Of a stretch of 64,000 nucleotides of DNA, positions 1 through 13,300 are shown piece by piece (the first letter of the stretch is position 1; each line of letters opens with the position of its first letter). The stretch comes from an uncultured Oxalobacter sp. (GTDB taxonomy: Bacteria > Pseudomonadota > Gammaproteobacteria > Burkholderiales > Burkholderiaceae_D). Location: assembly GCA_905202055.1 (NCBI GenBank), contig CAJKQK010000003.1:1264-65263 (forward strand), in the 5' to 3' direction. The notes under the pieces are model-generated. The model searched no databases, was not told where the DNA came from, and was given only the letters and a program-made list of their open reading frames with translations. The translations under genes were made by a program, and so were the position numbers.

Positions 1-1413
1 CGTATTTATGAATTCATCAGCGAGGCAAAAATATACAAGGACTCACTTGAAAAACTGGTCAAAGACATTGTGACCAAAAAGCAAGGGACTATTCCTCAAC
101 TGACCGCTGCGGCGTCTCTTGAAATTCCGACAGGAACCGAAGCAGTCATTCAGTTCGCGCCGAACATTGCATTAAATCACAATAAAGAAAAAGTCGATGA
201 TGTTCTGGGCGCTTACCTGCTCTGCCTGTATGGATTGAAAGGGGTTGCCGCCTACATGGAACATGCCGCCGTTCTGGGGCAAACCGACAGTGAAGTCTAT
301 AAGAGCTTCCATGAAATCATGAGTTATCTGGGCGACAAGCCGGACGATCTGGAAGAATTGCTTGGCACCGCCCTTAAAATTGGTGAACTGAACTATCGCG
401 TCATGACCATGCTCGATCATGGTGAAACAAGCCATTTCGGAGACCCGGTCCCGACAACGGTCAATATTGCCAAAACAAAAGGCAAGTGCATTCTTGTCTC
501 AGGCCACGATCTGGAAGATCTGTACGATATTCTCGTGCAAACCGAGGGCAAGGGAATCAATGTTTATACCCACGGCGAAATGTTGCCAGCACATGGCTAT
601 CCCAAATTGAACGCCTTTAAACATTTGATTGGAAATTACGGTACTGCCTGGCAAAACCAGCAGAAAGAATTTGCCCAATTTCCAGGCGCTATAGTGATGA
701 CCTCAAACTGCATTATCAATCCTGACATTGGTCGTTACAAAGACCGCATCTTTACACGCAGCATCGTCGGCTGGCCCGGTGTAAAACATATCGTGGGCAA
801 TGATTTCAGCGAAGTCATTAATTGCGCCCTCTCGCAAGTTGGGTTTGCTGAAACAGAAGTACCACACCATATTACCGTCGGGTTCGGCAGAGCCGCGCTG
901 GCGAATGCCGCACCTGCTGTCATACAGGAAATCAGGGCTGGTAACGTCAAACACGTCTTTTTGGTAGGCGGATGCGACGGCGATAAAAAAGAAAGAAATT
1001 ACTTCACCGAATTCGCGCAAAAAACACCTGCAGACACCCTGATGCTGACGCTGGCGTGCGGAAAATTCCGCTTCAACAGCCTTGATTTCGGCAACATCAA
1101 CGGTATTCCGCGATTGCTCGACGTGGGGCAATGCAACGATTCCTACTCAGCTATCCAGCTGGCATTGTCACTGGCAAAAGAATTCAACTGCGGCGTTAAC
1201 GATTTGCCACTAACGCTGGTTGTATCCTGGTTTGAACAAAAAGCCATTGCTGTCCTCCTGACTTTGCTCTCACTGGGAGTCAAGGGAATCTATCTCGGCC
1301 CATCGATACCTGTTTTCCTGACACCGAATCTGGTCAATTTGCTGGTCAATACTTTTGATATCCGCCCGATTTCAGATCCGGATACGGATTTGAAAAACAT
1401 GCTTCATGCCTGA
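1..1413 (+). CDS. hcp: Hybrid-cluster protein / hydroxylamine reductase. The 5' end is truncated by the window edge: the frame is open from base 1, and the ORF-track GTG at 70 is not the true start.
   Basis: 447 aa ORF plus 23 open upstream codons. The C-terminal two thirds of Hcp are recognisable (the motif region [15 protein letters not shown] and a Cys-rich hybrid-cluster ligand region). An hcr gene lies immediately downstream. Confidence 0.88.
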
Positions 1414-1486
1414 TGGATTTTTCAATCCGGCTCATCAAAACGTCCCGTAACTCATACGGGACGTTCCAAAATCGGGGAACAATCAC

Positions 1487-2542
1487 ATGACTAACCATGA
1501 AAACGGCTTATTGACTCTGGTTGAATCGGCATTTGAAACGGCAGACACAAAAAGCTTTTTCTTTCGCCATCCTATGGGAACACCGGATTTCAAACCTGGA
1601 CAATTCATCAATATTGGTGTCACGATTGATGGCAAGACACACTATCGCGCCTATTCAGTCAGTTCTCTTCCTTCAGACAAACTGATCCAGCTGACAATCA
1701 AACGCGTACCGGGAGGAACCGTATCCAACTGGATGATCGATCAGCTGAACGCCGGTGACCAGATCAGCCTGCACGGCCTCGCCGGTACATTCAACATCAT
1801 TGATTCCCCATACAGGAAAAACATTATTCTGATCAGCGCCGGATGTGGTATCACGCCAGTCATGTCAATGGCGCGATATCTGCTTTCACTCAATGACGAA
1901 CGCATCCAATCCATCCAGTTCATCCATTGCGCCCGGGATGAAGACAACATCATCTATTTCAAAGAACTCTGCAAATTAAACGAGGCGTACGATAAATTCA
2001 GTCCGGTCTTTTATTGCAGCCATCCCCAAAAAGAACATCGCAGCCTGATCCATAAAGGCCGACTGAATGCGGATTCGCTTATGGCGCACCTGAAGGACTA
2101 CTTCAATGACAGCTCGATTTATTTGTGCGGCCCCGACGAATTCATGGACATGGTCAAAACGGAAATCGACGCGTCCGGTTTCGATATGGGCCACTTCCAC
2201 ATGGAAAGCTTCGCGAGTTCATGCGAAACCCCTGAACCAAAGAGTGCCTCCATTCATGAAGGGAAAAACCATACGTTATCACTCCCGGATTTTGGTATTG
2301 AGAAAGAAGTACCGGACGGGACGATTCTGTTGGATATATTGCAGGAAAACAGCATCCCCATTGTCGCTGCATGTCGCTCCGGCATTTGCGGTTCATGCAA
2401 ATGCAAGGTCGAAACCGGAAAAATACAACTGACAGTCGATGCAGTCGCCAACGGAACCCTCACCCGTGAAGAAATTGACGAAGGCTACACATTGGCATGC
2501 TCCAGCAGGATAATCAACAACATCAGTGTCATCCTCAAATGA
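1487..2542 (+). CDS. hcr: NADH oxidoreductase Hcr, with an FAD/NAD-binding ferredoxin-reductase fold and a C-terminal 2Fe-2S ferredoxin domain.
   Basis: 351 aa. The C-terminal CRSGICGSCKC cluster motif is typical of plant-type 2Fe-2S ferredoxin domains. The gene is directly downstream of hcp, as in the hcp-hcr operon. Confidence 0.82.
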   Translation: MTNHENGLLTLVESAFETADTKSFFFRHPMGTPDFKPGQFINIGVTIDGKTHYRAYSVSSLPSDKLIQLTIKRVPGGTVSNWMIDQLNAGDQISLHGLAGTFNIIDSPYRKNIILISAGCGITPVMSMARYLLSLNDERIQSIQFIHCARDEDNIIYFKELCKLNEAYDKFSPVFYCSHPQKEHRSLIHKGRLNADSLMAHLKDYFNDSSIYLCGPDEFMDMVKTEIDASGFDMGHFHMESFASSCETPEPKSASIHEGKNHTLSLPDFGIEKEVPDGTILLDILQENSIPIVAACRSGICGSCKCKVETGKIQLTVDAVANGTLTREEIDEGYTLACSSRIINNISVILK

Positions 2543-2647
2543 TGACTTGCCTGACAAATTCCCGACAAACTGAAGCAATATTATGGAAGGCATTAATAAC
2601 GGTATAATCGAACAAAATTCCCGAAGTGCACGCTATCCGATCGACAC

Positions 2648-3067
2648 ATGCAATTAACCCAACAAACCGATTACGCGTTGCGCATATTAATGTATGCAGC
2701 GGCACATCCCGAGCGGCTGGTCAACATCACCGAGATAGCCGAGTTGTATGGCATTTCCAGAAGCCACCTGACAAAAATCGTCGCCAGCCTCGCCAGCAGC
2801 CACTATCTTGAAAGCATCCGCGGCAACAAAGGCGGCATCCGGCTCAACAGGCCTGCCAGCGAAATCAACATCGGAGAAATCATCCGCCGCTTCGAGCCAT
2901 TGGCCATAGTCGACTGTATGTCAAAAGCCCGAAGCTGCGTCATTACCCCCAACTGCAAACTGAAACATGTTTTCTTTGAAGCGACCGACGCTTTCCTGAA
3001 AACCTTTGACCAATATACCCTCGCTGACATGCTCACCCCTGCACTGATCAGACAGCTGAATACTTGA
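2648..3067 (+). CDS. nsrR: Rrf2-family transcriptional repressor, NO-sensing NsrR type.
   Basis: 139 aa. It has an N-terminal Rrf2 winged helix (MQLTQQTDYALRILMY...) and conserved C-terminal Cys residues (CMSKARSCVITPNC) that would ligate an Fe-S cluster. The genomic context is hcp-hcr. Confidence 0.75.
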   Translation: MQLTQQTDYALRILMYAAAHPERLVNITEIAELYGISRSHLTKIVASLASSHYLESIRGNKGGIRLNRPASEINIGEIIRRFEPLAIVDCMSKARSCVITPNCKLKHVFFEATDAFLKTFDQYTLADMLTPALIRQLNT

Positions 3068-3116
3068 ATCCATATCTGCTTCATCTTCCTTCCACAAAAC
3101 ATTTCAGCATCGCCCG

Positions 3117-3229
3117 AAATCGGACTTTCCCGGACGACAGATACAAAAAAACCCGCATAACTCATTGAATTTATGCGGGTTAATGTACTTCCAGGGGACG
3201 GATTGAAATAATCTTTTGGTGATGAGAGA
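3117..3229. repeat. Direct repeat copy A (~113 bp, ~90% identical to 7278..7390). It includes a partial tRNA-Thr 3' end (3217..3229) and a terminator hairpin.
   Basis: Aligned by eye: aatcggactttcccggacNacagatacaaaaaaacccNcataactcattgaatttatgcgggttaatNtacttc...gggacggNttgaaataat...tggtgNNgatgagag, with about 9 substitutions and a 2-nt indel. Confidence 0.8.
3144..3179 (-). terminator. Rho-independent terminator on the minus strand (stem cccgcataa/ttatgcggg, then a U7 run on the minus-strand RNA). It lies downstream of the restriction-modification operon.
   Basis: Plus strand reads aaaaaaacccgcataactcattgaatttatgcggg. The reverse complement gives a hairpin followed by a T7 run. Confidence 0.6.
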
Positions 3230-3370
3230 CATCAAACTGTATATATTAAACAACAAGTTACGCAATTAAATATAAAATATGCTCCCAAAATGATTATTGC
3301 CTGACATTTTAATTTTGATCATTTCTAATTTATAGGCAATGGAACCGTACTCTTGTGAGAAGGTTACTTG

Positions 3371-4621
3371 TCATTTAGAAGAAATACATTCATTAATTTC
3401 TTTAATAAATCCTTCTAACGACAAAAGATAAGGCTGAATCTTCTTCGGATATTTCGTAACAATTCCATAGGGAACCACCAGTTTGACATGAGCATTGGTC
3501 ATCTCTATGAACTGGTTTTCCGAAACACCTTCCTGTAACGTCAGGAGATGCTTTGTTTCAATCCTGTCCGCTTCATTCAGAATTTGTCTCCAGCGATCCT
3601 TGCAGGTTGTCTTGACTGCCAGCATTCGAAGCTTTTCAGAAGAGAATGATGCATTTTTATAATGACTCTCTGAAGGAAACAAAAAATCTGGTCTTTTGCC
3701 TTTTTCGGATTCAGGTCCGTGAGAAAAATCCTTTCCTTCCACAAGTCCCTCTTCCGTGAAAATATACTTTGTATGAAGCTCAAGAGATCTTCCCGAACGT
3801 GCTTTTCTTCTCTGGAGAATTGTCTGTGCTTTGGCAAGAAAATCATCAATACAGGAAAATCCCGCTTTGATGTATGGAAGTTCTACTGCGAGTTCAAGAC
3901 TTTTAAAAATATTAAATTCACATTCCCTGCGCCTCATAAGCCTCTTGTCAACAGGGAGATCTGCTTCAGGCCGCAACTTGATTGTATGTTCGATAATTTC
4001 CAAGGCTGAAGGAAAACTGGAAAGCCAAGGGAGAGGAATTTCATGTTCATCCAGCCAGCACGTTTCTTCCAGTTTAGCTGTCTTGACCTTTTTCTTTCTG
4101 AAAATGAGCGGGTGAGCTGCTTCATCAGAAGACCACGCTTTCATTTCCCCTGGATCTATTGAGCCAGTAACATTTTCTACAAGCTCCTCTTCTGCGACAT
4201 CCCGACAAACCCATACACGACAATTGATAGCATTCCCGCTTTCATTCAGCAGAAAAGCATAAACAACCAAAGCCCCCGTATTTTCATGATTTTGAAGAGG
4301 AGATCCTTTTCCACCAAAATTGGTTATTCTGACCTCGTTACGTCCCCCTTTAGGATTTTCATGAAAACGATTGTTATACCAAATAACACGAACCTTTTTC
4401 TTTACATCTTTATGAGAATCTGTATAGAGATCAAACCAAGCATCAGGATTTTTTTTCTTTTTATCATTCAGCGCGGGAAGAATACTAAAAAGAAAATCCT
4501 TCGAAATATAGGTACCCGCCTGATGGGTGTGATTAGCACCAGTGTCATTGGCAGAAAGCCTTTTGACAAACCAAATATGTGATGGTGATGAAACATCTTT
4601 AAGCCAGTCAGTCAGATCCAT
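3371..4621 (-). CDS. Type IIE restriction endonuclease of the EcoRII family (predicted CCWGG specificity).
   Basis: 416 aa. Blocks recalled from EcoRII match closely: RLSANDTGA..HQ.G.Y near the N-terminus, TGAL...AF, KPDFLFPS, and LRMLAVKTTCKDRWRQILNEAD...LFTLQEGVS...VKLVVP near the C-terminus. The gene is very AT-rich compared with its neighbours. It overlaps the vsr stop by 14 nt. Confidence 0.88.
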   Translation of the reverse strand: MDLTDWLKDVSSPSHIWFVKRLSANDTGANHTHQAGTYISKDFLFSILPALNDKKKKNPDAWFDLYTDSHKDVKKKVRVIWYNNRFHENPKGGRNEVRITNFGGKGSPLQNHENTGALVVYAFLLNESGNAINCRVWVCRDVAEEELVENVTGSIDPGEMKAWSSDEAAHPLIFRKKKVKTAKLEETCWLDEHEIPLPWLSSFPSALEIIEHTIKLRPEADLPVDKRLMRRRECEFNIFKSLELAVELPYIKAGFSCIDDFLAKAQTILQRRKARSGRSLELHTKYIFTEEGLVEGKDFSHGPESEKGKRPDFLFPSESHYKNASFSSEKLRMLAVKTTCKDRWRQILNEADRIETKHLLTLQEGVSENQFIEMTNAHVKLVVPYGIVTKYPKKIQPYLLSLEGFIKEINECISSK

Positions 4622-5075
4622 TTTTTACTCCACTAATACTGCCAGTTTCAGTGTTTCCTTTTATCCATTCTTCAACAACATCGAGAACCAGATCAAGAGA
4701 TTTCTTATTTTTACCCCGAAGCGTACACTCCCAAATGCTAAAAATGCGCCAATCTTTTTTTAATAAAAGATTTTTGACTTCCTCATCACGTCTGATATTG
4801 CCCTGAATTTTATTCTCCCAAAACTCCCTGTTGGTAGCAGGAAGCCGGAAAAGACTGCAATCATGTCCATGCCAATAGCAGCCATGAGTAAAAATCACAG
4901 CCTTGTACTTTGGCAGGACAATATCCGGCTTGCCCGGTAATTTTTTATCATTGATCCGGTAACGAAAACCTCTTGCAAACAATCCTTTGCGAACGAGCAC
5001 TTCAATTTTTGTGTTTTTTCCACGAATACCGGACATCATCCGGCTTCGTGTTTCCGGATCAACAATATCAGTCAT
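4608..5075 (-). CDS. vsr: Very short patch repair endonuclease (T:G mismatch endonuclease).
   Basis: 155 aa. The Vsr signature region is FTHGCYWHGHDC...NREFWENKI..N..RD. Its ATG overlaps the 3' end of the methyltransferase gene by 8 nt (ATGACTGA), as in dcm-vsr. Confidence 0.9.
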   Translation of the reverse strand: MTDIVDPETRSRMMSGIRGKNTKIEVLVRKGLFARGFRYRINDKKLPGKPDIVLPKYKAVIFTHGCYWHGHDCSLFRLPATNREFWENKIQGNIRRDEEVKNLLLKKDWRIFSIWECTLRGKNKKSLDLVLDVVEEWIKGNTETGSISGVKNGSD

Positions 5076-6375
5076 AACTGAGCTGTTCCTGAATAATGGC
5101 GTTTTCCTCGCGTTCCTTCAGTTCAAGGATCCATGGCTGCATCAGGGAAGCCACATGCTCCATCAACGGCATGACGACCGAATTGCCAAACTGTTTGTAG
5201 GCTCTTGTATCGGAGACGTTAATTTTGAAATCGTCCGGATAGCCCATCAACCTTGCGCATTCTCTTGGAGTGAGACGGCGCGGATTCTTGCCTTCACCGC
5301 GATAAATCAGGATTTCGGAACCGTCCTTGTGATACCGGGCAGACAGCGTTCTGGAGGTATTTTCAGGCTTCACCACACTGCAACCAAAACCGTTCCCCTT
5401 GGCCCGGTGTTTTTCTGCATAGGCCTGCAGATAGTTCCACAACTTGTCAGACAGGATATATTTATCGTGGACCTTTCCGTTCCGGTCAATATATTTGCCG
5501 TCATCCACATCCGTTTCCGTTCCATCTTCAGGATGCAAAATATCTTTCAGTTTCGGCGTTTCAGTTCCGAGTTGTGGAAGCTGGAGAGCATCCCAGTCAA
5601 AACCGGTTTTTTCCCTGAAGCCGACGATCAGGATACGTTCACGATGCTGCGGTACAAAATGCTGCCCATCAATGACGCGCCATGTGATGTGATAGCCAAG
5701 TTCCCGTTCCAGAGTATCCTTGATAACCGAAAAGGTATGGCCCTTGTTATGTGAGAGCAGGTTTTTGACATTCTCAAGCAGGAAGGCCTTAGGCTTCTTT
5801 TCTGCAATAATTCTGGCGACATCAAAAAACAGGGTTCCCTGCGTGGCGCATTCAAACCCGTGCGGACGCCCCATGGCATTTTTCTTGGAAACACCGGCAA
5901 GACTGAACGGCTGGCAGGGAAAACCGGCCAGCAGGACATCATGATCCGGTATGTCGGCCGCATCCACCTTTGTGATGTCGCCGGCGATATTGTGATCATC
6001 CGGGAAGTTGTCTACATAGGTTTTCTGTGCATAGCTGTCCCATTCGCTGGTATAGACGCAACGTCCACCCTGAGCCTCAAACCCCATCCGGATGCCGCCG
6101 ATACCGGCGAACAGATCAATAAAGGTAAATTTGCTTTCGGGTTTCATCTTGGCAGGTTTTGAAGCAATCACTCTGAGTGCCGGAAGAAGTGCAAAAGGTA
6201 TTTCGATCTGCCCCGATTCCCAGCGCGATATATGACGTGGTGAATAATGTAAAAGAGAGGCCAGTTCCTTTTGCGTGTAACGTTCACGCACTTTAGACAA
6301 TACCTGATGAGCCTCGTTATAGTCAGAAATATTCATTTGTTTTTCCATTAAATCGCTGGGACAAACTGCTGACAT
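5068..6375 (-). CDS. DNA (cytosine-5)-methyltransferase, Dcm/M.EcoRII-like, with an N-terminal XRE-type HTH domain.
   Basis: 435 aa. C5-MTase motifs are present: FAGIGG (motif I), PCQPFS (motif IV), ENV (motif VI) and QFGNSV (motif X). The N-terminal region ~YTQKELASLLHYSPRHISRWESGQ is an HTH. The true start may be an internal Met (MEKQMNIS...). Confidence 0.9.
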   Translation of the reverse strand: MSAVCPSDLMEKQMNISDYNEAHQVLSKVRERYTQKELASLLHYSPRHISRWESGQIEIPFALLPALRVIASKPAKMKPESKFTFIDLFAGIGGIRMGFEAQGGRCVYTSEWDSYAQKTYVDNFPDDHNIAGDITKVDAADIPDHDVLLAGFPCQPFSLAGVSKKNAMGRPHGFECATQGTLFFDVARIIAEKKPKAFLLENVKNLLSHNKGHTFSVIKDTLERELGYHITWRVIDGQHFVPQHRERILIVGFREKTGFDWDALQLPQLGTETPKLKDILHPEDGTETDVDDGKYIDRNGKVHDKYILSDKLWNYLQAYAEKHRAKGNGFGCSVVKPENTSRTLSARYHKDGSEILIYRGEGKNPRRLTPRECARLMGYPDDFKINVSDTRAYKQFGNSVVMPLMEHVASLMQPWILELKEREENAIIQEQLSYD

Positions 6376-6398
6376 TATGTCATGTATCCGTCCCGAAT

Positions 6399-6415
6399 AG
6401 TAGCAATTTGCTACT
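6399..6415. promoter_or_regulatory. 17-bp perfect palindrome AGTAGCAA-T-TTGCTACT, 24 bp upstream of the methyltransferase start. Candidate operator for the methyltransferase's own HTH domain.
   Basis: Seen directly in the sequence. HTH-fused C5-MTases such as M.SsoII, M.EcoRII and M.MspI bind inverted repeats in their own promoter regions. Confidence 0.4.
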
Positions 6416-6572
6416 GATTTGATCTGCCCGAAATCAGGAGAAATACCGGAAGAATTATCCGATCAAACAAGAGATCTGTCTGCCCCGGTCCTGTCCGTTT
6501 TGATACGGACGAATCAATATCCCGGACGGGTGTATCCATAAATGGACACACCCGCCAATCAGGAAACAGGGT

Positions 6573-7233
6573 TTAATTGCAATTGGTTTTTCCCGTGCAT
6601 TGGGAAAGACATTTTCGGCCATGCCTCTTCAGTCCCATGTTGGCGCTTTTCGAAAGGTTCCTGTCGTCCGGCCGGTTCAGATAATTTTCTTTTTCACTGA
6701 CAGACACATGTATGAACCGGTCGATTTCCGAAATAAACCCGACCATCTGGCCTTTCAGGGATTTGTGTCCGGACGCTGCTTTTTTCGGGATTGCATTCCG
6801 AACATGTCCAGAACAATATACTGAAGGAATGTGATGTCCTGCCGGTTCTCTTTCCTGCACCTGAGATAAACAAGGGCCAGCGCCCTGCCTGTCGCACAAC
6901 CTCCGGAATATCCGCCAGCACGCGGAACGTTCCAGTAACAGACACTTTTCTTCCTGAGCCTGAAAAAAGGAAGACTGTGAACGGGCAGTGACCTGTCTGA
7001 TAACAGCTTCAAATACAACATCATCCATCGCCAAATAAGCTGCCTCGGCAACAGCCCTGAACCGTCGCGAAGATAACGGAGTCAAGTTCATGAAAACATC
7101 TAGCGACCTTGATGACTACCGTGCCATACTGTCTTCCATAAAGAATGACTTTCCACATTAATGCTTCCTGTCCAAGTTCTTCATGGAACAAGGCATGGTT
7201 TGGCATTACCGGAAAAGGAAGAATGTTCTTCAT
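6573..7233 (-). pseudogene. Frame-disrupted gene remnant of unknown function inside the insertion. At least three overlapping minus-strand reading frames; no recognisable integrase motifs.
   Basis: ORFs 7021..7233, 6573..7091, 6755..7051 and 6694..6945 overlap in different frames. None has a recognisable domain. GC content looks intermediate by eye. Confidence 0.3.
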
Positions 7234-7277
7234 GATCAGTCCCAGTCTTGGCGATTGCGTGAATCATGAACGGACGG

Positions 7278-7375
7278 AATCGGACTTTCCCGGACTACAG
7301 ATACAAAAAAACCCACATAACTCATTGAATTTATGCGGGTTAATATACTTCTTGGGACGGCTTGAAATAATTCTG

Positions 7376-7390
<15 letters not shown>
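7278..7390. repeat. Direct repeat copy B. It lies immediately 3' of, and partly overlaps, the intact tRNA-Thr 3' end.
   Basis: See copy A. Copy B contains the terminator hairpin at 7304..7339, with a G-U wobble in the minus-strand stem. Confidence 0.8.
7304..7339 (-). terminator. Rho-independent terminator downstream of tRNA-Thr on the minus strand.
   Basis: Plus strand reads aaaaaaacccacataactcattgaatttatgcggg. The minus-strand RNA forms the hairpin followed by a U7 run. Confidence 0.55.
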
Positions 7391-7451
<61 letters not shown>

Positions 7452-8328
7452 GAAGCGTGCATTGTAGCAAAAAAAATGCACATCTTGTCGCTATTCATTA
7501 TATAAGAATGATGTTATTCAAACCAGCAACACAATTGTCCGTTTGTGTCTCAGTGTTTCCGGCTGATGCGGGCAATATCTCCGGGAAAATTCTCCGGAGT
7601 AAGCGGTCACCTTTCACTCTTGCACCTGTCTGCCATAACGGCAGATTTACTCTGTTTCCCTTTTTCTGCCTTTGTTTTGGATCTGTTTTTTGTCGGGTAT
7701 CGATGGATATGAAAAAATCCGTCGGGCCGGGCCCAAAACGCACCTGTTGATTGTGAACGTATATTTGTCATCAGCCTCACATCGAGGCTATATCTGAAAG
7801 CACGTGTCGGATCATCAAGGAACACCAGTGTTACAGCTGCAAACGGCGAGATATTTTTTTCAGGAAAGTCTGAAGTGTCAGAGGGCAGGAATAAAAACGT
7901 ATGCGATCCGACTTGCGTCGGGTCTATACTCACATTCCTGGCAAATCATCGTACTAAATCAGTTCAGGCGCAATGGCGTTATTGATGAAGATGATTTGCT
8001 GGCACAGCCTTGCTATGACAAGGAATAAAAGACGCAAGGCAAAAATCATAAAAAATGAGAAGGCTGTTGTCTTGTCTCTGAACTGGAATGACAAGGAGTG
8101 ATCAGGAAAATCAAAAACGTCATTGAAAGAACTTCTTGCCAGTTTATAAACATGATTTTTTTGCGCCCGTATTTCGAACGGGACGAACGCCTTCCAAACA
8201 ACACAGGGATTATATTTTTAATCAATAGTGTGCAATAAATTTTGAAGCCTAAAATTAGTACATAAATCAGAATGGAAAATTTTCGGTAAACTGTCTGTAC
8301 AATTCGCCCTTTCTTTTAAGGAACCATA

Positions 8329-9063
8329 ATGAAATATTTCCTTTCGACCTTTCTGAGACGTTTTTCACTCGCTGCCCTGTTGCTGGCGGGATGTCTTGCT
8401 CACGCGGCGGCGACTTCACCTGAAGCCCGTATCCAGCAACGCCTGCAAAACTATCTTGGTGTCGACGTTCCGAAAAGCGCCATTGTCAAAACACCTTATA
8501 TGGGTTTGTATGAAGTCAGGCTCGGGAACAATCTCGTTTATACGGACAAGCAGGCTCAATATCTGTTTCTTGGCGAAATCATGAATCTGGAAACGAGGGA
8601 AAATTACACCGAGGAAAAACTTAAAAAGATGGTTACCCGGTTTGCCGATCTGCCAAAAGATCTGGCCATCAAGATCGTGAAGGGAAACGGGAAACGCGAA
8701 ATCGCCGTTTTTTCCGATCCGAATTGCGCTTATTGCAAACGGTTTGAAGGCAACCTGAAAGAAATCGACAATGTGACGGTTTATCTTTATCCGTACAATA
8801 TTCTGTCGGCCAATTCGGTTGAGATTTCGAAAAATGCCTGGTGTTCGGCCAACCCTGCAAAAGCATGGGAAGACTGGATGCTGAATGGAAATGTACCGGA
8901 AAAGGCAAAACCCGATTGCAACTTCCCTAATGAAAAAATCCGCGAATTGGGACAAAAACTCAAAGTCAGTGGCACGCCGACTATTTTCTTTACCGACAAT
9001 ACTCGCGTAGCGGGCGCTATCGATGCTGAATCACTGGAGAAAAAGTTGAAATCGCTGAAATAA
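8329..9063 (+). CDS. dsbC: Periplasmic thiol:disulfide interchange protein, DsbC/DsbG family.
   Basis: 244 aa. It has a signal peptide, an N-terminal dimerisation region and a thioredoxin fold with a CAYC active site. Confidence 0.75.
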   Translation: MKYFLSTFLRRFSLAALLLAGCLAHAAATSPEARIQQRLQNYLGVDVPKSAIVKTPYMGLYEVRLGNNLVYTDKQAQYLFLGEIMNLETRENYTEEKLKKMVTRFADLPKDLAIKIVKGNGKREIAVFSDPNCAYCKRFEGNLKEIDNVTVYLYPYNILSANSVEISKNAWCSANPAKAWEDWMLNGNVPEKAKPDCNFPNEKIRELGQKLKVSGTPTIFFTDNTRVAGAIDAESLEKKLKSLK

Positions 9064-9082
9064 CCGGTTCCGGATAATAAAT

Positions 9083-9117
9083 AAATCCTGTCCATCGCTG
9101 ATGGACGGGATTTATTT
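9083..9117. terminator. Bidirectional hairpin terminator between dsbC and the convergent DMT transporter gene.
   Basis: aaatcctgtccatcgctgatggacgggatttattttt: a 12-bp stem with a T-run. Confidence 0.5.
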
Positions 9118-10032
9118 TTGTGTGAGTTTATGGACAAGCGCCTTGATGGAGGCCAGAGACATGTTGAACGACTTGCCCAGAATAATGACGATCACGGCCA
9201 GTATGATCATGAATATGCCGACGGCCATATTGACGGTCAGCGGTTCGTGAAACACGACAATCCCCACAAAAACAGCCGTTAAGGGTTCGAGCGCTCCGAG
9301 AATAGCGGTAACGGTCGAGCCGACATTGTGAACCGCCCACACCATTGCAACGCACGATACGACGGTCGGAACCAGCGCCAGCATGAGGATATCGAACCAC
9401 GACGCGACACCGGAGATCATTTCCAGATTCGCACCGAATTTCAGTTTGATGAAGAAAATTCCGCTTCCAACCAGGAGCGCATAAAAGGTCAGTTTGTCCC
9501 CATCCATTGTATTGACACGCGTTTTGTTGACGCCGACGATATAAAGCGCATAAGCCAGTGCCGACAGGAAAACGATAAATATGCCGAACATGCTTAACGG
9601 CATTCCCTGGTTTCCTTTATAGAGCAGCCCAATACCGACGAATGCCAGCATGATGGAGGTGATTGTCGCCCAGGTAATTTTCTCCCTGAAAAAAATCGCC
9701 ATGATCAGCGTCACCAGAATCGGATAGAAAAACAGGATGGTCGAGGCAATGCCCGATTCCATGTAGAGATAGCTCATGAAAAGAAACAGCGACGACAGCG
9801 CGAAAAGGCTTCCCAGTCCCATCAGCGGCAGGATATCGGCACGCTCGAGCCTGAACGATTTGCCGGTCAGTTTCAGGACGGCTCCCAGAAACAGGGTCGC
9901 AAAGAAATAACGATAGAACAGGATACTATCGTAATGCATTCCACGGGACATCAGGGGCAGAGTAAACAGGGGAACCAGCCCGTAGGTCGCGGAAGAAATA
10001 CAGCCATAAAGATAGCCTTTGATTTTATTCAT
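9112..10032 (-). CDS. DMT-superfamily (EamA-like) transporter, 10 transmembrane helices.
   Basis: 306 aa, very hydrophobic, with a duplicated EamA-like architecture. Confidence 0.7.
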   Translation of the reverse strand: MNKIKGYLYGCISSATYGLVPLFTLPLMSRGMHYDSILFYRYFFATLFLGAVLKLTGKSFRLERADILPLMGLGSLFALSSLFLFMSYLYMESGIASTILFFYPILVTLIMAIFFREKITWATITSIMLAFVGIGLLYKGNQGMPLSMFGIFIVFLSALAYALYIVGVNKTRVNTMDGDKLTFYALLVGSGIFFIKLKFGANLEMISGVASWFDILMLALVPTVVSCVAMVWAVHNVGSTVTAILGALEPLTAVFVGIVVFHEPLTVNMAVGIFMIILAVIVIILGKSFNMSLASIKALVHKLTQK

Positions 10033-10332
10033 GTTATTTGTGACTGTATTGCGAGAAAAGACTGTAAAAAAGTCTCATCATACCGAGTTCCCGCATGGAA
10101 ACATCTATTTTTTCATTCTTCCTTGTTCAATCTTTATATCGTTTATCAAATATAAAAGTAAGTCCGTTTTACCATTTTATATATGACAAATCAGACGATA
10201 TTGGGTTTGGACAATCGATATTAACCCTGCCATTCGTCTGGTCTGGTTGATTACAGTATAATTTTTACCTTGTTGCTCCGTTTTTGGCACAATCGGATTC
10301 CGGAAATAATTAAACAGTTTTCTTCAATAAAA

Positions 10333-13300
10333 ATGACCTCGACAGATAAAACCTCTACTGAAGCCTGTCTTCGCGAAATTATGTCCAAACGCATTCTTGT
10401 TCTGGACGGTGCAATGGGTACGATGATCCAGCGTTACGGACTGACCGAAGAGGATTATCGGGGTGGCCCCGGTGGCCGGTTTGCGAATTTTGTGCCTCCG
10501 GCTTCCGAAAGCAAACGGGAACTGTTCGTCAAGGGCAACAACGAATTGTTGTCGCTGACCCAGCCGCACATCATTTCAGCCATTCATGAAGAATACCTGA
10601 AAGCGGGTGCCGACGTGATCGAAACGAATACGTTTGGCGCAACATCGATTGCCCAGGGCGATTATCACATGGCACATCTCGTTTACGAGATGAATGTGCA
10701 ATCGGCGAAAATCGCCCGTGAAATTTGCGACATGTATTCCACACCTGATCGTCCACGTTTCGTGGCGGGTTCTATCGGGCCGACCCCAAGAACCGCGTCG
10801 ATCTCTCCCGATGTCAGCGATCCGGGCGCGCGTAATGTCACGTTCGACCAACTGGTCGAGGCATACATGGAACAAATCAGGGGACTTGTCGAAGGCGGTG
10901 CCGACCTGCTGCTGGTCGAAACGGTTTTCGATACCCTGAACTGCAAGGCCGCTCTTTTCGCCATCGATTCGTTTTTCGAAGAATCCGGCAAGAAATTGCC
11001 GATCATGATTTCCGGTACGGTGACGGACGCTTCCGGCCGTATCCTGTCGGGACAGACAGTGACGGCTTTCTGGTATTCCATCCGCCATGCCCGTCCTTTG
11101 ACGGTCGGGCTGAACTGCGCACTGGGTGCCGTACTGATGAGGCCTTATGTTGAAGAACTGTCCCGCATTGCCGATACGCATATCTGCATTTATCCCAATG
11201 CCGGCTTGCCCAATCCAATGAGCGAAACGGGCTTTGACGAATTGCCTGAAGACACGTCGGCCTTTTTGAAGGAATTTGCCGAAAGCGGCTTTATCAACGT
11301 TGTGGGCGGATGTTGCGGTACGACGCCCGACCATATTCGCGCTATTGCAAAAGCGGTCGCGCCTTTGCCTCCGAGAAAAGTCCCGACTATTCCGCCTGCC
11401 ATGCGCCTGTCCGGGCTGGAACCTTTCACGATTGACGACAATTCCCTGTTCGTCAATGTCGGGGAACGGACCAACGTAACCGGTTCGAAAGCTTTCGCCC
11501 GGATGATCCTGAACGAGGAATACGACAACGCGCTTGCGGTCGCACGACAACAGGTCGAAAACGGTGCCCAGATCATCGACATCAATATGGATGAGGCCAT
11601 GCTGGATTCGGTCAGTGCGATGAAACGTTTTCTGAATCTGATAGCATCGGAGCCGGAAATCTCGCGTGTGCCGGTTATGCTGGACTCGTCCAAATGGGAA
11701 GTCATTGAGACTGGCTTGAAATGCCTGCAAGGCAAATCGATCGTCAATTCCATATCTCTGAAAAATGGTGAAGAAGAATTCATTCATCATGCCAAACTGT
11801 GCCGTCGTTATGGTGCAGCCATTATCGTGATGGCATTCGATGAAAAGGGACAGGCCGACACGTACCAGCGCAAAATCGATATCTGCAAACGGGCATATGA
11901 CTTGCTGGTCAACCAGATCGGGTTCCCGTCTGAAGACATCATTTTCGATCCGAATATCTTTGCGATCGCGACCGGTATCGAAGAGCATAACAATTATGCG
12001 GTCGATTTTATCGAGGCGACCCGCTGGATCAGGAACAACCTGCCGAATGCAAGAATCAGCGGTGGCGTCTCCAACGTCAGTTTCAGTTTGCGCGGCAATA
12101 ATCCTGCCCGTGAAGCCATCCATACCGTTTTCCTGTATCACGCCATTTCAGCCGGGATGACGATGGGTATCGTCAACGCGGGCATGATGGGCGTTTACGA
12201 CGAGATTCCGGAAGCCTTGCGTGAACGGGTTGAAGACGCCGTCCTGAATCGCCGTGAAGATGCGACGGAACGTCTGATCGACGTGGCTGGAGAATTCCAG
12301 TCCGGAGCCAAAAAAGAAGGTGAAAATCTTCAGTGGAGAGAAGAATCCGTCAACAAACGCCTGTCTTATGCTTTCGTGCATGGCGTAACGGACTTCATCA
12401 TTGAAGACACGGAAGAAGCCCTGCAGGATACACTGAAGAACGGTGGCAAACCGATTGAAGTTATCGAAGGACCGTTGATGGACGGGATGAATGCTGTCGG
12501 CGATCTTTTCGGGCAGGGCAAAATGTTCCTGCCTCAGGTCGTCAAGTCCGCACGCGTCATGAAACAGGCCGTCGCGCATCTGGTACCTTATATCGAGGAA
12601 GAAAAGCGTCAGAGTGGCAGCAGCCAGTCGAACGGAAAGATCGTTATTGCTACGGTCAAGGGTGACGTTCACGATATCGGCAAAAACATTGTTGCCGTCG
12701 TTTTGCAGTGCAACAACTTTGAAGTCATCAATCTGGGCGTCATGGTTCCATGTGAGGAAATCCTTGCAAAGGCCAAGGAGGTCAACGCCGATGCCATTGG
12801 CCTGTCCGGCCTGATCACGCCGTCGCTGGAAGAAATGATGTACGTTGCCGGTGAAATGCAGCGGGATGAATATTTCCGTTCCCGCAATATTCCGCTCTTT
12901 ATCGGTGGCGCGACGACCAGCAAGACCCATACTGCTGTCAAGATCGCACCGAATTACGAAGGCCCGGTTGTCCATGTCACCGATGCTTCCAGAACCGTCA
13001 CGGTCATCCAGGCACTGCTTTCAGACAGTATCCGTGAGAAATATCTCAAGGTTCTGTCGGACGATTACGAGCATATCCGGGAATTGCATGCCCAGAAAAA
13101 ACCCCAGAAACTGCTGTCTATCGGGGATGCACGAAAGAACAAGGCCCAGTTATCGTTTGAAGGAAAAGACGCACCGAAGCGGCCGACTTATCTCGGACAG
13201 CGTTTCCTGAGAAATATCGATTTGGCCACGCTGGTCGATTACATCGACTGGTCGCCGTTTTTCAGGGTATGGGATTTGTCCGGCTCCTATCCGACCATCC

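Follow-up and report, generated by a model that had tools for sequence, protein, structure and literature searches.

Integrase-less derivatives of integrative elements have been described in Streptococcus thermophilus as CIMEs, which are flanked by att sites and are cis-mobilizable. Restriction-modification (R-M) systems can be maintained by addiction, and the loss of an EcoRII-type system kills the cell. Islands that occupy tRNA genes and encode P4-type (DUF4102 / Arm-DNA-bind_3) tyrosine integrases are collected in the Islander catalogue (PMC4383910), and the direct repeats of tRNA-gene islands in Klebsiella span 15-221 bp (bioRxiv 10.1101/2020.11.02.365908). P4-like satellites and P2-like phages hold hotspots of defence cargo (Rousset et al. 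2022, PMC9122126). Integrase-independent insertion of R-M units with a long target duplication is recognized by the criteria of Furuta, Abe and Kobayashi (2010), which are the presence of R and M genes, an insert of <20 kb, a repeat of >30 bp, and no integrase (PMC2853133).

The window analysed here is the whole 64-kb stretch of DNA, which comes from an Oxalobacter formigenes-group chromosome and encodes an NsrR that is 96% identical to that of O. formigenes OxB. Between nsrR and a tRNA-Thr(CGU) gene the window carries a 4-kb segment with an EcoRII-like R-M system that is bracketed by two direct repeat copies, A and B (Table 1). This segment is very probably an integrase-less remnant of a family of islands that target tRNA-Thr(CGU) by means of a P4-type tyrosine integrase, with the two repeats as its worn attL and attR. 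Long duplications are characteristic of the island family, which makes an unusual mechanism unnecessary. The element type is ordinary, and the locus is an unusually busy hotspot for defence genes. The loci compared are labelled L001, L011, L117 and so on; they are mostly metagenome contigs and may be chimeric, and several independent assemblies agree.

Table 1. Features of the nsrR/tRNA-Thr(CGU) interval in the window (+ and -, strand; a point, no strand).
Feature	Position	Strand	Evidence
nsrR (Rrf2 family), conserved distal flank	2648-3067	+	Pfam Rrf2, E = 8e-37
Copy A, putative distal att site, attR-like	3117-3229	.	Repeat search, MAFFT, BLAST, folding
Conserved left-end module, putative P' arm remnant of attP	3230-3295	.	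Common to islands with unrelated cargo
EcoRII-like endonuclease gene, 416 aa, apparently intact	3371-4621	-	Pfam EcoRII-N and EcoRII-C; PADLOC REase_II
vsr, very-short-patch repair endonuclease, 155 aa	4608-5075	-	Pfam Vsr (PF03852), E = 2e-34; TIGR00632, E = 1e-42
C5-cytosine methyltransferase, Dcm/M.EcoRII-like, 435 aa, N-terminal HTH	5068-6375	-	Pfam, NCBIfam
Perfect 17-bp palindrome AGTAGCAA-T-TTGCTACT	6399-6415	.	Sequence; hairpin listing
Decayed small island genes ("broken gene")	6573-7266	-	blastn and alignment to L107/L108
Putative deletion junction, from L107-type interior homology to att-region homology	7262-7268	.	blastn, alignments
Copy B, putative tRNA-proximal att site, attL-like	7269-7390	.	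Repeat search, MAFFT, BLAST, folding
tRNA-Thr(CGU), intact, putative integration target	7376-7451	-	ARAGORN; Rfam tRNA, 76.7 bits

The stretch that copy B has in common with copy A is 7278-7390, and the two are about 89% identical. Direct repeats of ~113 bp with ~90% identity had been read from the letters alone, and they are confirmed here by a repeat search, by MAFFT and by BLAST self-comparison. The repeat search of the window returned the pairs 3104-3196 / 7264-7356 (88%) and 3195-3225 / 7354-7384, MAFFT joined the copies in a single unbroken alignment with indels of 1 nt and 3 nt, and BLAST aligned 3115-3229 with 7275-7389 (88.8% over 116 nt, E = 5e-36). Copy A contains a displaced 3' fragment of tRNA-Thr and the region downstream of the tRNA, including a terminator hairpin at 3150-3181. 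The tRNA fragment is 12 nt long (3218-3229), reads TGG---TGATGAGAG and has a 3-nt deletion. Copy B contains a homolog of the tRNA-downstream region, T', with a terminator hairpin at 7310-7341, and the 15-nt 3' end of the tRNA; its T-loop differs from that of copy A by 3 mismatches. Folding studies determined that in each copy the hairpin precedes U7 on the tRNA strand, with energies of -21.9 and -16.8 kcal/mol (z = -3.9 and -2.6), in line with the proposal that each copy consists of a tRNA 3' end and a terminator hairpin. These hairpins were overlooked by a simple terminator scan because the loop is 9 nt, and folding confirmed them. Exactly two occurrences of the 42-nt terminator core are present in the 64 kb of the window, versus 0 expected from shuffles, and among the ~130 loci compared the core is confined to the nsrR/tRNA-Thr locus; the repeat is not a dispersed multi-copy element in the sequence examined. 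The repeat was also considered as a structured RNA gene, which was rejected; Rfam (E <= 1) matched the tRNA alone.

At the sequence level the cargo has the components of an EcoRII-type R-M system with Vsr, namely a two-domain endonuclease, a C5-methyltransferase, and a linked Vsr. The endonuclease domains are full length (EcoRII-N, PF09217, E = 2e-46; EcoRII-C, PF09019, E = 2e-60; REase_II, E = 2e-83), the methylase matches DNA_methylase (PF00145, E = 5e-88), HTH_3, PRK10458 and TIGR00675, and vsr overlaps both adjacent genes by 8-14 nt. The Pfam domains bear out the earlier assignment of an EcoRII-like system with vsr, and the broken gene described beside it corresponds to decayed small genes. 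The palindrome lies ~25 bp upstream of the methylase start, is unchanged in L107 and L108, and is a candidate operator for the methylase HTH. The sequence-only reading described the endonuclease gene as far more AT-rich than its surroundings. This holds for the endonuclease and vsr genes, which have 40% GC (endonuclease 40.1%) compared with 47.5% in the window as a whole and 46-52% in the genes nearby, but not for the methylase gene (48.9%) and positions 6376-7266 (47.4%), which are host-like, and the strongly AT-rich part is only the 140-bp left end with 29% GC. A plasmid origin was rejected; a PLSDB megablast search with 3000-7500 matched merely 140 bp of the methylase. The insert had been said to lack an integrase, and neither tblastn with three integrases from the locus nor Pfam revealed one anywhere in the window.

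The open reading frames at 6573-7233 (minus strand) have no family assignment, and the broken gene has no Pfam, NCBIfam or meaningful PHROG match. A search of 5.8 billion proteins with the broken gene found 3 homologues, and the matches led to two larger islands, L107 and L108, which feature the same dcm-vsr module (93.5% nucleotide identity) followed by six more island genes. The decayed genes have homologues in these islands, namely genes of 147/187 aa, 97/100 aa and 98 aa, and differ from them by deletions of 2, 12, 64 and 1 nt; blastn of the region against L107 gave identities of 93.5% and 82.5%. The possibility that the broken gene is an integrase remnant was rejected; tblastn with the three locus integrases against 6300-7300 and the whole window was empty. 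Homology to L107/L108 ends at ~7266, with additional small deletions, and genes of 98, 560, 217 and 700 aa that are present in the relatives are absent at the junction. AlpA, an integrase and the P arm were presumably removed at this junction as well. Judged from the alignments to L107, the larger relative, the island in the window arose from a longer form by deletion. The 700-aa gene of L107 has 67% nucleotide identity to the DUF927 gene of L003, the L107 contig terminates inside it, and the tRNA-proximal ends of the L003 and L107 islands were not recovered. The loci compared did not include a full-length EcoRII island with an integrase, and exact-protein look-ups with DsbC and EamA gave empty, EcoRII, BglII and other types. 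Because no full-length EcoRII island was recovered, the ancestral integrase is deduced from the ends and genes that the segment has in common with members of the family.

The flank at 70-3067 is 99.2-100% identical among strains that carry different inserts or are empty. In strains with 99% identical flanks the nsrR/tRNA-Thr(CGU) interval is either empty, with one repeat copy, or holds one of about ten inserts. The empty sites of L001 and L047 consist of nsrR, a single repeat copy, tRNA-Thr and dsbC, with flanks that are 98.9-99.2% identical to the window, and L061 is an empty site of the OxB lineage. These single-copy sites, with flanks that are 99% identical, establish the insertion at tRNA-Thr(CGU) that had been proposed; two copies surround unrelated cargo in some relatives and one copy stands in the empty sites, so the two-copy arrangement is not common to all of them. 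The same remnant with identical repeats is present in at least 3 other independent metagenome assemblies (L006/L050/L123, L051/L124, L052/L125). L049 features a second small R-M insert, BglII-like and 2.2 kb long, in the same place between the repeat copies. The alternative cargos include EcoRII, BglII-like R-M, Dcm+HATPase+Vsr, Z1/AIPR/DUF4420, a Gabija/PARIS-like ATPase, a CapP-like M78, and Mrr/CTD6/MC2.

The origin of the repeats is revealed by relatives that still encode an integrase. The integrase adjoins the tRNA in L011, L059, L117-L122, L109-L116 and L060, and T' lies between the integrase start and the tRNA in L117/L119, L059, L120, L109-L116 and L060. L011, from the OxB lineage, is a 9.8-kb island between two copies, and its 427-aa integrase (Arm-DNA-bind_3, Phage_int_M and Phage_integrase) adjoins the tRNA-side copy. 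The nsrR-side copy of L011, taken with its flank, matches L061, the empty site, at 100% for 194 bp, as far as GGAGTCGAA in the T-loop, and the tRNA-side copy differs as near as 6 nt from the tRNA end. Since the nsrR-side copy equals the empty site and the tRNA-side copy differs from it, the island itself brings T', and the crossover falls within the tRNA in the OxB lineage. A crossover in the downstream T region instead of the tRNA was considered because the distal copies in the window's species all carry damaged tRNA fragments, and the L011/L061 comparison rejects it for the OxB lineage only. L117 and L119 are complete islands of 6.2 kb from the same species as the window. Copy A is 97.8% identical to the distal copy of L117, which bears an integrase, and copy B is 93.9% (L120) and 97.5% (L117) identical to the integrase-tRNA interval and 96% identical to copy B of L011. 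These comparisons uphold the suggestion that the island brought a homeologous version of the tRNA-downstream sequence, which is now the copy next to the tRNA. The premise that integration duplicates only 15-20 bp is not supported, in view of the long imperfect repeats that flank integrase-bearing islands, which are 93 nt at 94% identity in L011 and are also present in L117/L119.

These comparisons bear on the mechanism of Nobusato, Furuta and Kobayashi, by which the R-M unit itself would have inserted beside the tRNA independently of an integrase and duplicated a ~113-bp target. The window has the formal features listed by Furuta et al., with R and M genes in an insert of <20 kb, a repeat of >30 bp and no integrase, and the BglII-like insert of L049 is a second small R-M unit at the same position. 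However, L117 and L011 bear the same repeats around islands that have an integrase and no R-M genes, the R-M module sits within a larger island in L107, and the left end of the window has arm-type integrase sites in common with integrase islands. Additionally, there is an overlap between the repeat and the tRNA 3' end, and Furuta et al. regard such an overlap as a sign of site-specific recombination (PMC2853133). Target duplicates also start out identical, yet copy B is closer to T' alleles (94-97.5%) than to copy A (89%). Insertion by long target duplication is already largely refuted and has hardly any probability left.

For an integrase-less remnant of the island family the following course of events can be proposed. 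The attP of the family would consist of the last ~15-23 nt of the tRNA and T', a ~90-110-bp homolog of the downstream sequence with an intrinsic terminator. Integration would rebuild the tRNA gene with the 3' end and terminator supplied by the island (copy B), and the chromosomal 3' end and terminator would end up beyond the distal end of the island (copy A). An attP with both a tRNA end and T' would therefore leave an imperfect direct repeat of ~113 bp and not one of ~20 bp. In the order that we infer, an internal deletion at ~7262-7268 would then have taken the integrase, the arm sites and the genes for replication and regulation, and later small deletions would have broken the neighbouring small genes. 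The survivors would be the left-end defence cargo, a dcm-vsr-ecoRIIR operon, and two att scars. Such a remnant would be incapable of self-excision, probably passes between strains only by homologous recombination in its flanks, and by analogy with known systems is probably kept for phage defence and by the lethality of losing an EcoRII-type system. The proposal of an ancient attL/attR pair that has decayed was essentially correct.

The integrase arm sites further link the window to the family. Arm-type repeats track the integrase variant at both island ends, with GGGGCA/TGCCCC in L011 and L120, GGGGTA/TACCCC in L117 and L059, and TGTGTATA in L109 and L060. L011 has a 54-nt arm repeat on each arm, and both arms are also present in L117. 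The left ends of the relatives feature one or two TGCCCC or TACCCC sites, which match the sites beside their own integrase genes, and the left-end module of the window is also present in L003, L005, L008, L049, L011 and L012 despite unrelated cargo. The window retains one mutated arm-type site, ATGCTCCCAAAA at 3279-3290, which reads TGCTCCC for TGCCCCC, and arm-type sites are not present on both sides of the core, as the integrase-side (P) arm is missing. A cassette that is still mobile, excised and re-integrated by a related integrase in trans as a CIME would be, is favoured by the attL- and attR-like flanks without an integrase, by the circulation of related integrases at this site within the species, and by two distinct small R-M inserts, those of the window and L049. 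This is nevertheless very unlikely, given the deletion of the P arm with its arm-type sites, the mutation of the sole left-end arm site, the 3-nt deletion in the core of copy A with its T-loop mismatches to copy B, and the absence of a circular or attP form from viral contigs, where the pattern GATGAGAGRCATCRAACTGTATA was unmatched. Damage of this kind is found in all nsrR-side copies of the window's species, which lack 3-26 nt and are mismatched in the T-loop (GCATCAAAC for GAGTCGAAC), including that of the apparently intact L117. The damaged distal junctions may either be old and inherited, with cargo and integrase modules swapped, or reflect an attP core that is unlike the tRNA.

There is also evidence of exchange by homologous recombination at the locus. 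L051 and the window have 2 mismatches over 8.5 kb of island and right flank and 78 mismatches over 3 kb of left flank, a pattern that reads as a recombination tract with its end at the island. The T alleles of different strains are mosaic, and the T region of nsrR-side copies is ~10% divergent between strains whose flanks differ by 0.4%. Simple vertical inheritance of attB does not predict this divergence, which calls for either recurrent exchange between T and T' or the import of old haplotypes. One source proposed for the duplication was the import of the island, from a related species that carried it at the same locus, through transformation and homologous recombination; the duplication would then be a by-product. 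The L051 tract that stops at the island and the mosaic T alleles are in its favour, as is copy B, which reaches to ~7265 and is closer to the chromosomal tRNA-downstream sequence of the OxB lineage (91.8%, 134 nt) than to copy A. However, homologous replacement exchanges alleles and yields no two direct copies, attL and attR of the integrase family fully account for the two-copy structure, and T' of L120, directly beside the integrase gene, matches the left part of copy B equally well or better (93.9%). Import is thus an improbable source of the duplication, and homologous recombination is likely the means of later spread and not the origin of the repeats; the proposal stands for the remnant's probable spread, as in the L051 tract. 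It is conceivable, if doubtful, that T' doubles as a homology anchor, which together with the left-end module would allow RecA-dependent deletion, swapping or re-insertion of cargo without an integrase, for example after DNA uptake. Integrase-less R-M cassettes such as those of the window and L049 would then be exchangeable "alleles" of the defence hotspot, and the anchor would explain why T alleles are mosaic, why T diverges by ~10% beside 99.6% identical flanks, and why R-M-only remnants recur.

The locus is a worked case of a decayed tRNA island that presents itself as an R-M cassette between long repeats, with no gene for mobility. Published criteria would score this cassette as an integrase-independent long target duplication, which calls for caution in surveys of R-M mobility. 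The Oxalobacter nsrR/tRNA-Thr(CGU) interval is a highly variable defence hotspot with about ten alternative occupants on a ~99% identical backbone. Oxalobacter is a gut oxalate degrader of clinical interest, and the hotspot bears on strain typing, phage susceptibility, and probiotic engineering. The integrase family with its attB is a possible integration tool.

Like known tRNA-gene islands, the window has an intact, regenerated tRNA on one side of the insert and, on the opposite side, a displaced 3' piece in direct orientation; sister strains have empty sites, identity starts in the T-loop or 3' end, the repeat length falls within 15-221 bp, and the integrase of relatives lies by the tRNA with arm-type sites. 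Unlike those islands, it lacks the integrase and its arm, which makes it a remnant and not a functional member; its att homology reaches ~100 bp beyond the tRNA into the terminator at ~89% identity, and its displaced tRNA fragment has a deletion. The hotspots of P4-like satellites and P2-like phages likewise have a conserved integrative backbone with varied defence systems at one fixed position. The integrase-bearing relatives have AlpA, L110, L112 and L114 add primase-helicase genes (Toprim_3 and DUF3987), and a DUF927-type gene is present in L003 and L107. In contrast, the host here is Oxalobacter and not Enterobacteria, and the window keeps the cargo alone; of the P4-like satellite gene set, Pfam found no integrase, AlpA or alpha-type primase in it. 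The long target duplications of Furuta et al. differ in that the repeats of the window belong to an integrase family as its att sites and the absence of an integrase is secondary. Like CIMEs, the window segment arose by deletion from an integrative element, has attL/attR flanks and lacks recombination genes, whereas its att sites look damaged, with the P arm missing and the core mutated, and mobilisation in trans is therefore unlikely. The EcoRII, Dcm and Vsr proteins of E. coli have the same two-domain endonuclease, C5 methylase with a regulatory N-terminus, and vsr gene overlapping the methylase gene, whereas the genes in the window form one co-directional overlapping M-V-R operon.

The nsrR-side (distal) copy A at 3117-3229 and the tRNA-side (proximal) copy B at 7269-7390, whose shared part spans 7278-7390, form a pair of imperfect direct repeats. 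A direct-repeat search returned the segment pairs 3104-3196 with 7264-7356 (88%) and 3195-3225 with 7354-7384, which MAFFT placed in one alignment with indels of 1 nt and 3 nt, and BLAST aligned 3115-3229 with 7275-7389 at 88.8% identity over 116 nt (E = 5e-36). Agreement among the three methods confirms the ~113-bp repeat that the sequence-only reading had claimed. The position and strand of the tRNA-Thr gene place its last 15 nt inside copy B; copy A features 12 of these 15 nt, the other 3 being deleted from the acceptor strand. Folding of the tRNA strand gives an 11-bp hairpin followed by U7 in each copy. Across the 64-kb window there are exactly two occurrences of the 42-nt hairpin core, against none in shuffled sequences, and Rfam found no RNA family besides tRNA in the repeat copies. 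The copy A terminator lies 50 bp past the nsrR stop codon, but it faces the other strand.

The ~4-kb island between the copies carries an endonuclease, Vsr and a methylase, the genes of which overlap one another, and no integrase is encoded in the whole 64-kb window. The endonuclease gene had been described as far more AT-rich than its surroundings. Its lower GC content holds, however, "far more" is overstated, because the endonuclease and vsr genes are at 40% GC and the 140-bp left end of the island at 29%, while the methylase gene and 6376-7266 are host-like (47-49%) and the window mean is 47.5%. In SsoII/EcoRII-type systems the N-terminal HTH domain of the methylase is autoregulatory and acts via an operator. 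A perfect 17-bp palindrome, AGTAGCAA-T-TTGCTACT, is located at 6399-6415, ~25 bp before the start codon of the HTH-methylase, and the related contigs L107 and L108 have it in identical form; the methylase HTH would probably use it as the operator for autoregulation of the operon.

Features of the window, occupants of the nsrR/tRNA-Thr site and short repeats near the integrase genes
Sequence	Feature	Position	Strand
Window	Hybrid-cluster protein (Prismane), ORF truncated at window start		
Window	FAD/NAD/2Fe-2S oxidoreductase	1487-2542	
Window	NsrR	2648-3067	
Window	EcoRII-N/EcoRII-C endonuclease	3371-4621	minus
Window	Vsr	4608-5075	minus
Window	HTH-C5-methylase	5068-6375	minus
Window	ORFs without any family	6573-7233	minus
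Window	tRNA-Thr(CGT) (ARAGORN and Rfam)	7376-7451	minus
L001/L047	Empty, single repeat copy		
L006/L050/L123, L051/L124, L052/L125	EcoRII segment as in window		
L049	N4/N6-methylase and BglII-like endonuclease pair, 2.2 kb		
L003, L004, L007, L010	Dcm, HATPase_c_3, 355-aa protein and Vsr, then DUF927 gene		
L005, L009	HATPase-Z1-DUF4420-AIPR-Dcm-Vsr		
L008	676-aa unknown protein		
L117-L119, L059	6.2-kb island: integrase, AlpA, CapP-like M78 peptidase, 386-aa protein		
L120	Integrase island with KilA-N and Mrr/CTD6/MC2/AAA_23 cargo		
L048	Integrase and relaxase element		
L002	Conjugative element with type IV secretion genes		
L011 (sister lineage OxB)	9.8-kb island: integrase, Gabija/PARIS-like ATPase, D12 methylase		
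L061 (OxB lineage)	Empty site		
L011, L120	Short repeat GGGGCA/TGCCCC		
L117, L059	Short repeat GGGGTA/TACCCC		
L109, L060	Short repeat TGTGTATA		

The window NsrR shares 96% identity with its Oxalobacter formigenes OxB counterpart, and the upstream region (70-3067) is a nitrosative-stress cluster of a hybrid-cluster protein, an oxidoreductase and NsrR. The locus was sampled by exact-protein look-ups with NsrR, DsbC and EamA, which gave many same-species human-gut metagenome contigs and genomes, whose flanks match the window at 98.8-100% identity. The insertion at tRNA-Thr, proposed in the sequence-only reading, is borne out by the empty-site comparison, in which L001 and L047 hold no insert. 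The variety of alternative occupants in strains and in the sister lineage establishes the nsrR/tRNA-Thr locus as an integration and defence hotspot. The Z1 gene of the Z1/AIPR insert encodes 886 aa in L005 (12677-15337) and 774 + 85 aa in L009 (3258-5918); a frameshift or misassembly in one of the two may account for this. The OxB-like lineage (L061 8401-9579, L057 and L058) features ~1.1 kb between tRNA-Thr and dsbC that is absent from the window's species (window 7909-7931).

The origin of the duplication is seen in relatives that retain an integrase. In O. formigenes OxB (L011), the nsrR-side copy and its flank match the empty site L061 without a difference (100%) for 194 bp, and the match stops precisely at GGAGTCGAA, where the tRNA T-loop has its 5' edge. 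The tRNA-side copy has several differences from L061, up to 6 nt from the tRNA end, and over their 93 nt the two L011 copies share 94% identity. This comparison indicates that in the OxB lineage the distal copy is displaced chromosomal sequence (T, the tRNA-downstream region with its terminator), that the proximal copy (T', the island-borne homolog, with the tRNA 3' end) arrived with the island, and that strand exchange took place within the last 23 nt of the tRNA. The 427-aa integrase of L011 (Arm-DNA-bind_3, Phage_int_M, Phage_integrase) directly adjoins the proximal copy. Homologous integrases (61-76% identity, hundreds of variants) occupy the equivalent place in L059, L117-L122, L109-L116 and L060, each with a T' segment and its terminator hairpin between integrase and tRNA. 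Two direct and two inverted short repeats are located upstream of each integrase start, and their sequence changes together with the integrase variant. At the other (left) end of the island the same motif class occurs 1-2 times, ~45 bp from the core, and in L011 a 54-nt block with two TGCCCC sites is present on both arms. The short repeats are predicted arm-type sites, and attP is expected to take the form P arm - T' - tRNA 3' end - P' arm. Given the arm sites and an attP that includes T', the long imperfect duplication is a property of the attP of this island family. The repeat length is unexceptional against tRNA-gene islands in Klebsiella, which have direct repeats of 15-221 bp (bioRxiv 10.1101/2020.11.02.365908).

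Two further elements were observed at the site. At 8930-9090, the L048 element, with a 347-aa integrase and a relaxase, supplies its own tRNA-Thr 3' half, in which the T-stem differs by compensatory changes (GAGAAGAATCGAACTTC vs GAGAGGAGTCGAACCTC). The element also carries an unrelated terminator hairpin of its own and, next to its integrase gene, four direct repeats of TGTACCG; it is an independent element that likewise brings a terminator together with a tRNA 3' end. In L002 (10453-10640), a conjugative element with a 483-aa integrase and type IV secretion genes is inserted at the tRNA-Thr anticodon loop. In its distal copy, an L003-type downstream allele that has a 4-nt deletion in the acceptor stem is fused to a genuine tRNA 3' half, as would be expected of the leftover if an L003-type island had excised by crossover in GATGAGAGG.

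The window island shares both of its ends with this family. Copy A shares 97.8% identity with its distal counterpart in L117, a complete integrase island, and the adjoining 3230-3295 is homologous to the left ends of L003, L005, L008, L049, L011 and L012; islands with this type of left end carry unrelated cargo. The left end features a single mutated predicted arm site, ATGCTCCCAAAA, at 3279-3290. Copy B is 97.5% identical to the L117 proximal copy from 7300 onward and, from 7269, 93.9% identical over 164 nt to the integrase-tRNA segment of L120. The broken gene of the island has just three homologs among 5.8 billion proteins, and these led to L107 and L108, which carry the same dcm-vsr module at 93.5% nucleotide identity, preceded by genes of 147/187, 97/100, 98, 560, 217 and 700 aa. 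The L003-type island matches their 98-aa gene region at 88% identity, and the DUF927 gene of L003 matches their 700-aa gene at 67%. Relative to L107/L108, the small genes of the window have deletions of 2, 12, 64 and 1 nt, and the homology stops at ~7262-7266, directly abutting T'. The shared ends, this stop and the small-gene deletions show a deletion derivative that has kept the left-end R-M operon cargo and both att scars. The island interior and the P arm are lost and, judging from family members, AlpA and the integrase would have been lost as well. Since the copy A core is damaged, only one mutated P' site is left and there is no P arm, the island is unlikely to excise either autonomously or by mobilisation in trans. 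L049, which features no arm motifs beside the tRNA, is a second, independent R-M-only remnant. R-M systems have defence value and exert post-segregational killing, and retention of exactly the R-M part would fit both.

In all distal copies in the window's species, the tRNA fragment is shortened by 3, 4, 21 or 26 nt and GCATCAAAC stands in place of the tRNA's GAGTCGAAC, the neighbour copy of L117 included. Either these are old inherited junctions to the right of which modules were exchanged, or the attP core of the islands of this species is itself imperfect. The displaced hairpin is damaged in L003 (10468-10590), L005, L002, L049 and L008 (GCAAG for GCGGG, 1-nt C deletion), and the distal copies of L008, L049 and L117 lack a further 21-26 nt. 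Displaced terminator copies thus decay; by contrast, the copy A hairpin is intact. The T region of the distal copies is ~10% divergent between strains whose 3-kb flanks differ by only 0.4%, and the L001 empty-site allele is a mosaic of copy A and copy B variants, which suggests that T and T' were repeatedly exchanged, for example by RecA-mediated island loss via the 100-bp repeats, and that old haplotypes were imported. Additionally, L051 (equivalent to window 1-11500) has 2 mismatches to the window in 3001-11500 (8.5 kb of island and right flank) and 78 in 1-3000, left of the island, so homologous recombination shuffles this region. The L051 tract ends within the hcp / NADH-oxidoreductase / nsrR cluster, at the island or close to it. 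The earlier proposal that the island brought a homeologous flank and came by recombination is therefore supported for the flank and, from the L051 tract and the mosaic T, for recombination as a means of spread, but not for recombination as the origin of the duplication.

The window element derives from a tRNA-integrating island with a P4-type integrase and works in the same manner. With no integrase and only one of the two arms represented, it is filed as a remnant. AlpA is found in the integrase-bearing relatives, with primase-helicase genes added in L110, L112 and L114. No literature on Oxalobacter with restriction-modification and an integrase was found. The findings call for no new mechanism, and their main value is a clean explanation together with the description of a very variable Oxalobacter defence hotspot. 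The window would qualify as an R-M "insertion with long target duplication" under the formal criteria in Furuta et al. 2010 (PMC2853133); the present evidence rejects this label and shows a site-specific insertion that has decayed. P4-like satellites (PMC9122126) likewise have defence hotspots in which a conserved integrative backbone carries varying defence cargo at one set position; the likeness is one of layout, and in the Oxalobacter family the cargo sits at the end far from the integrase.
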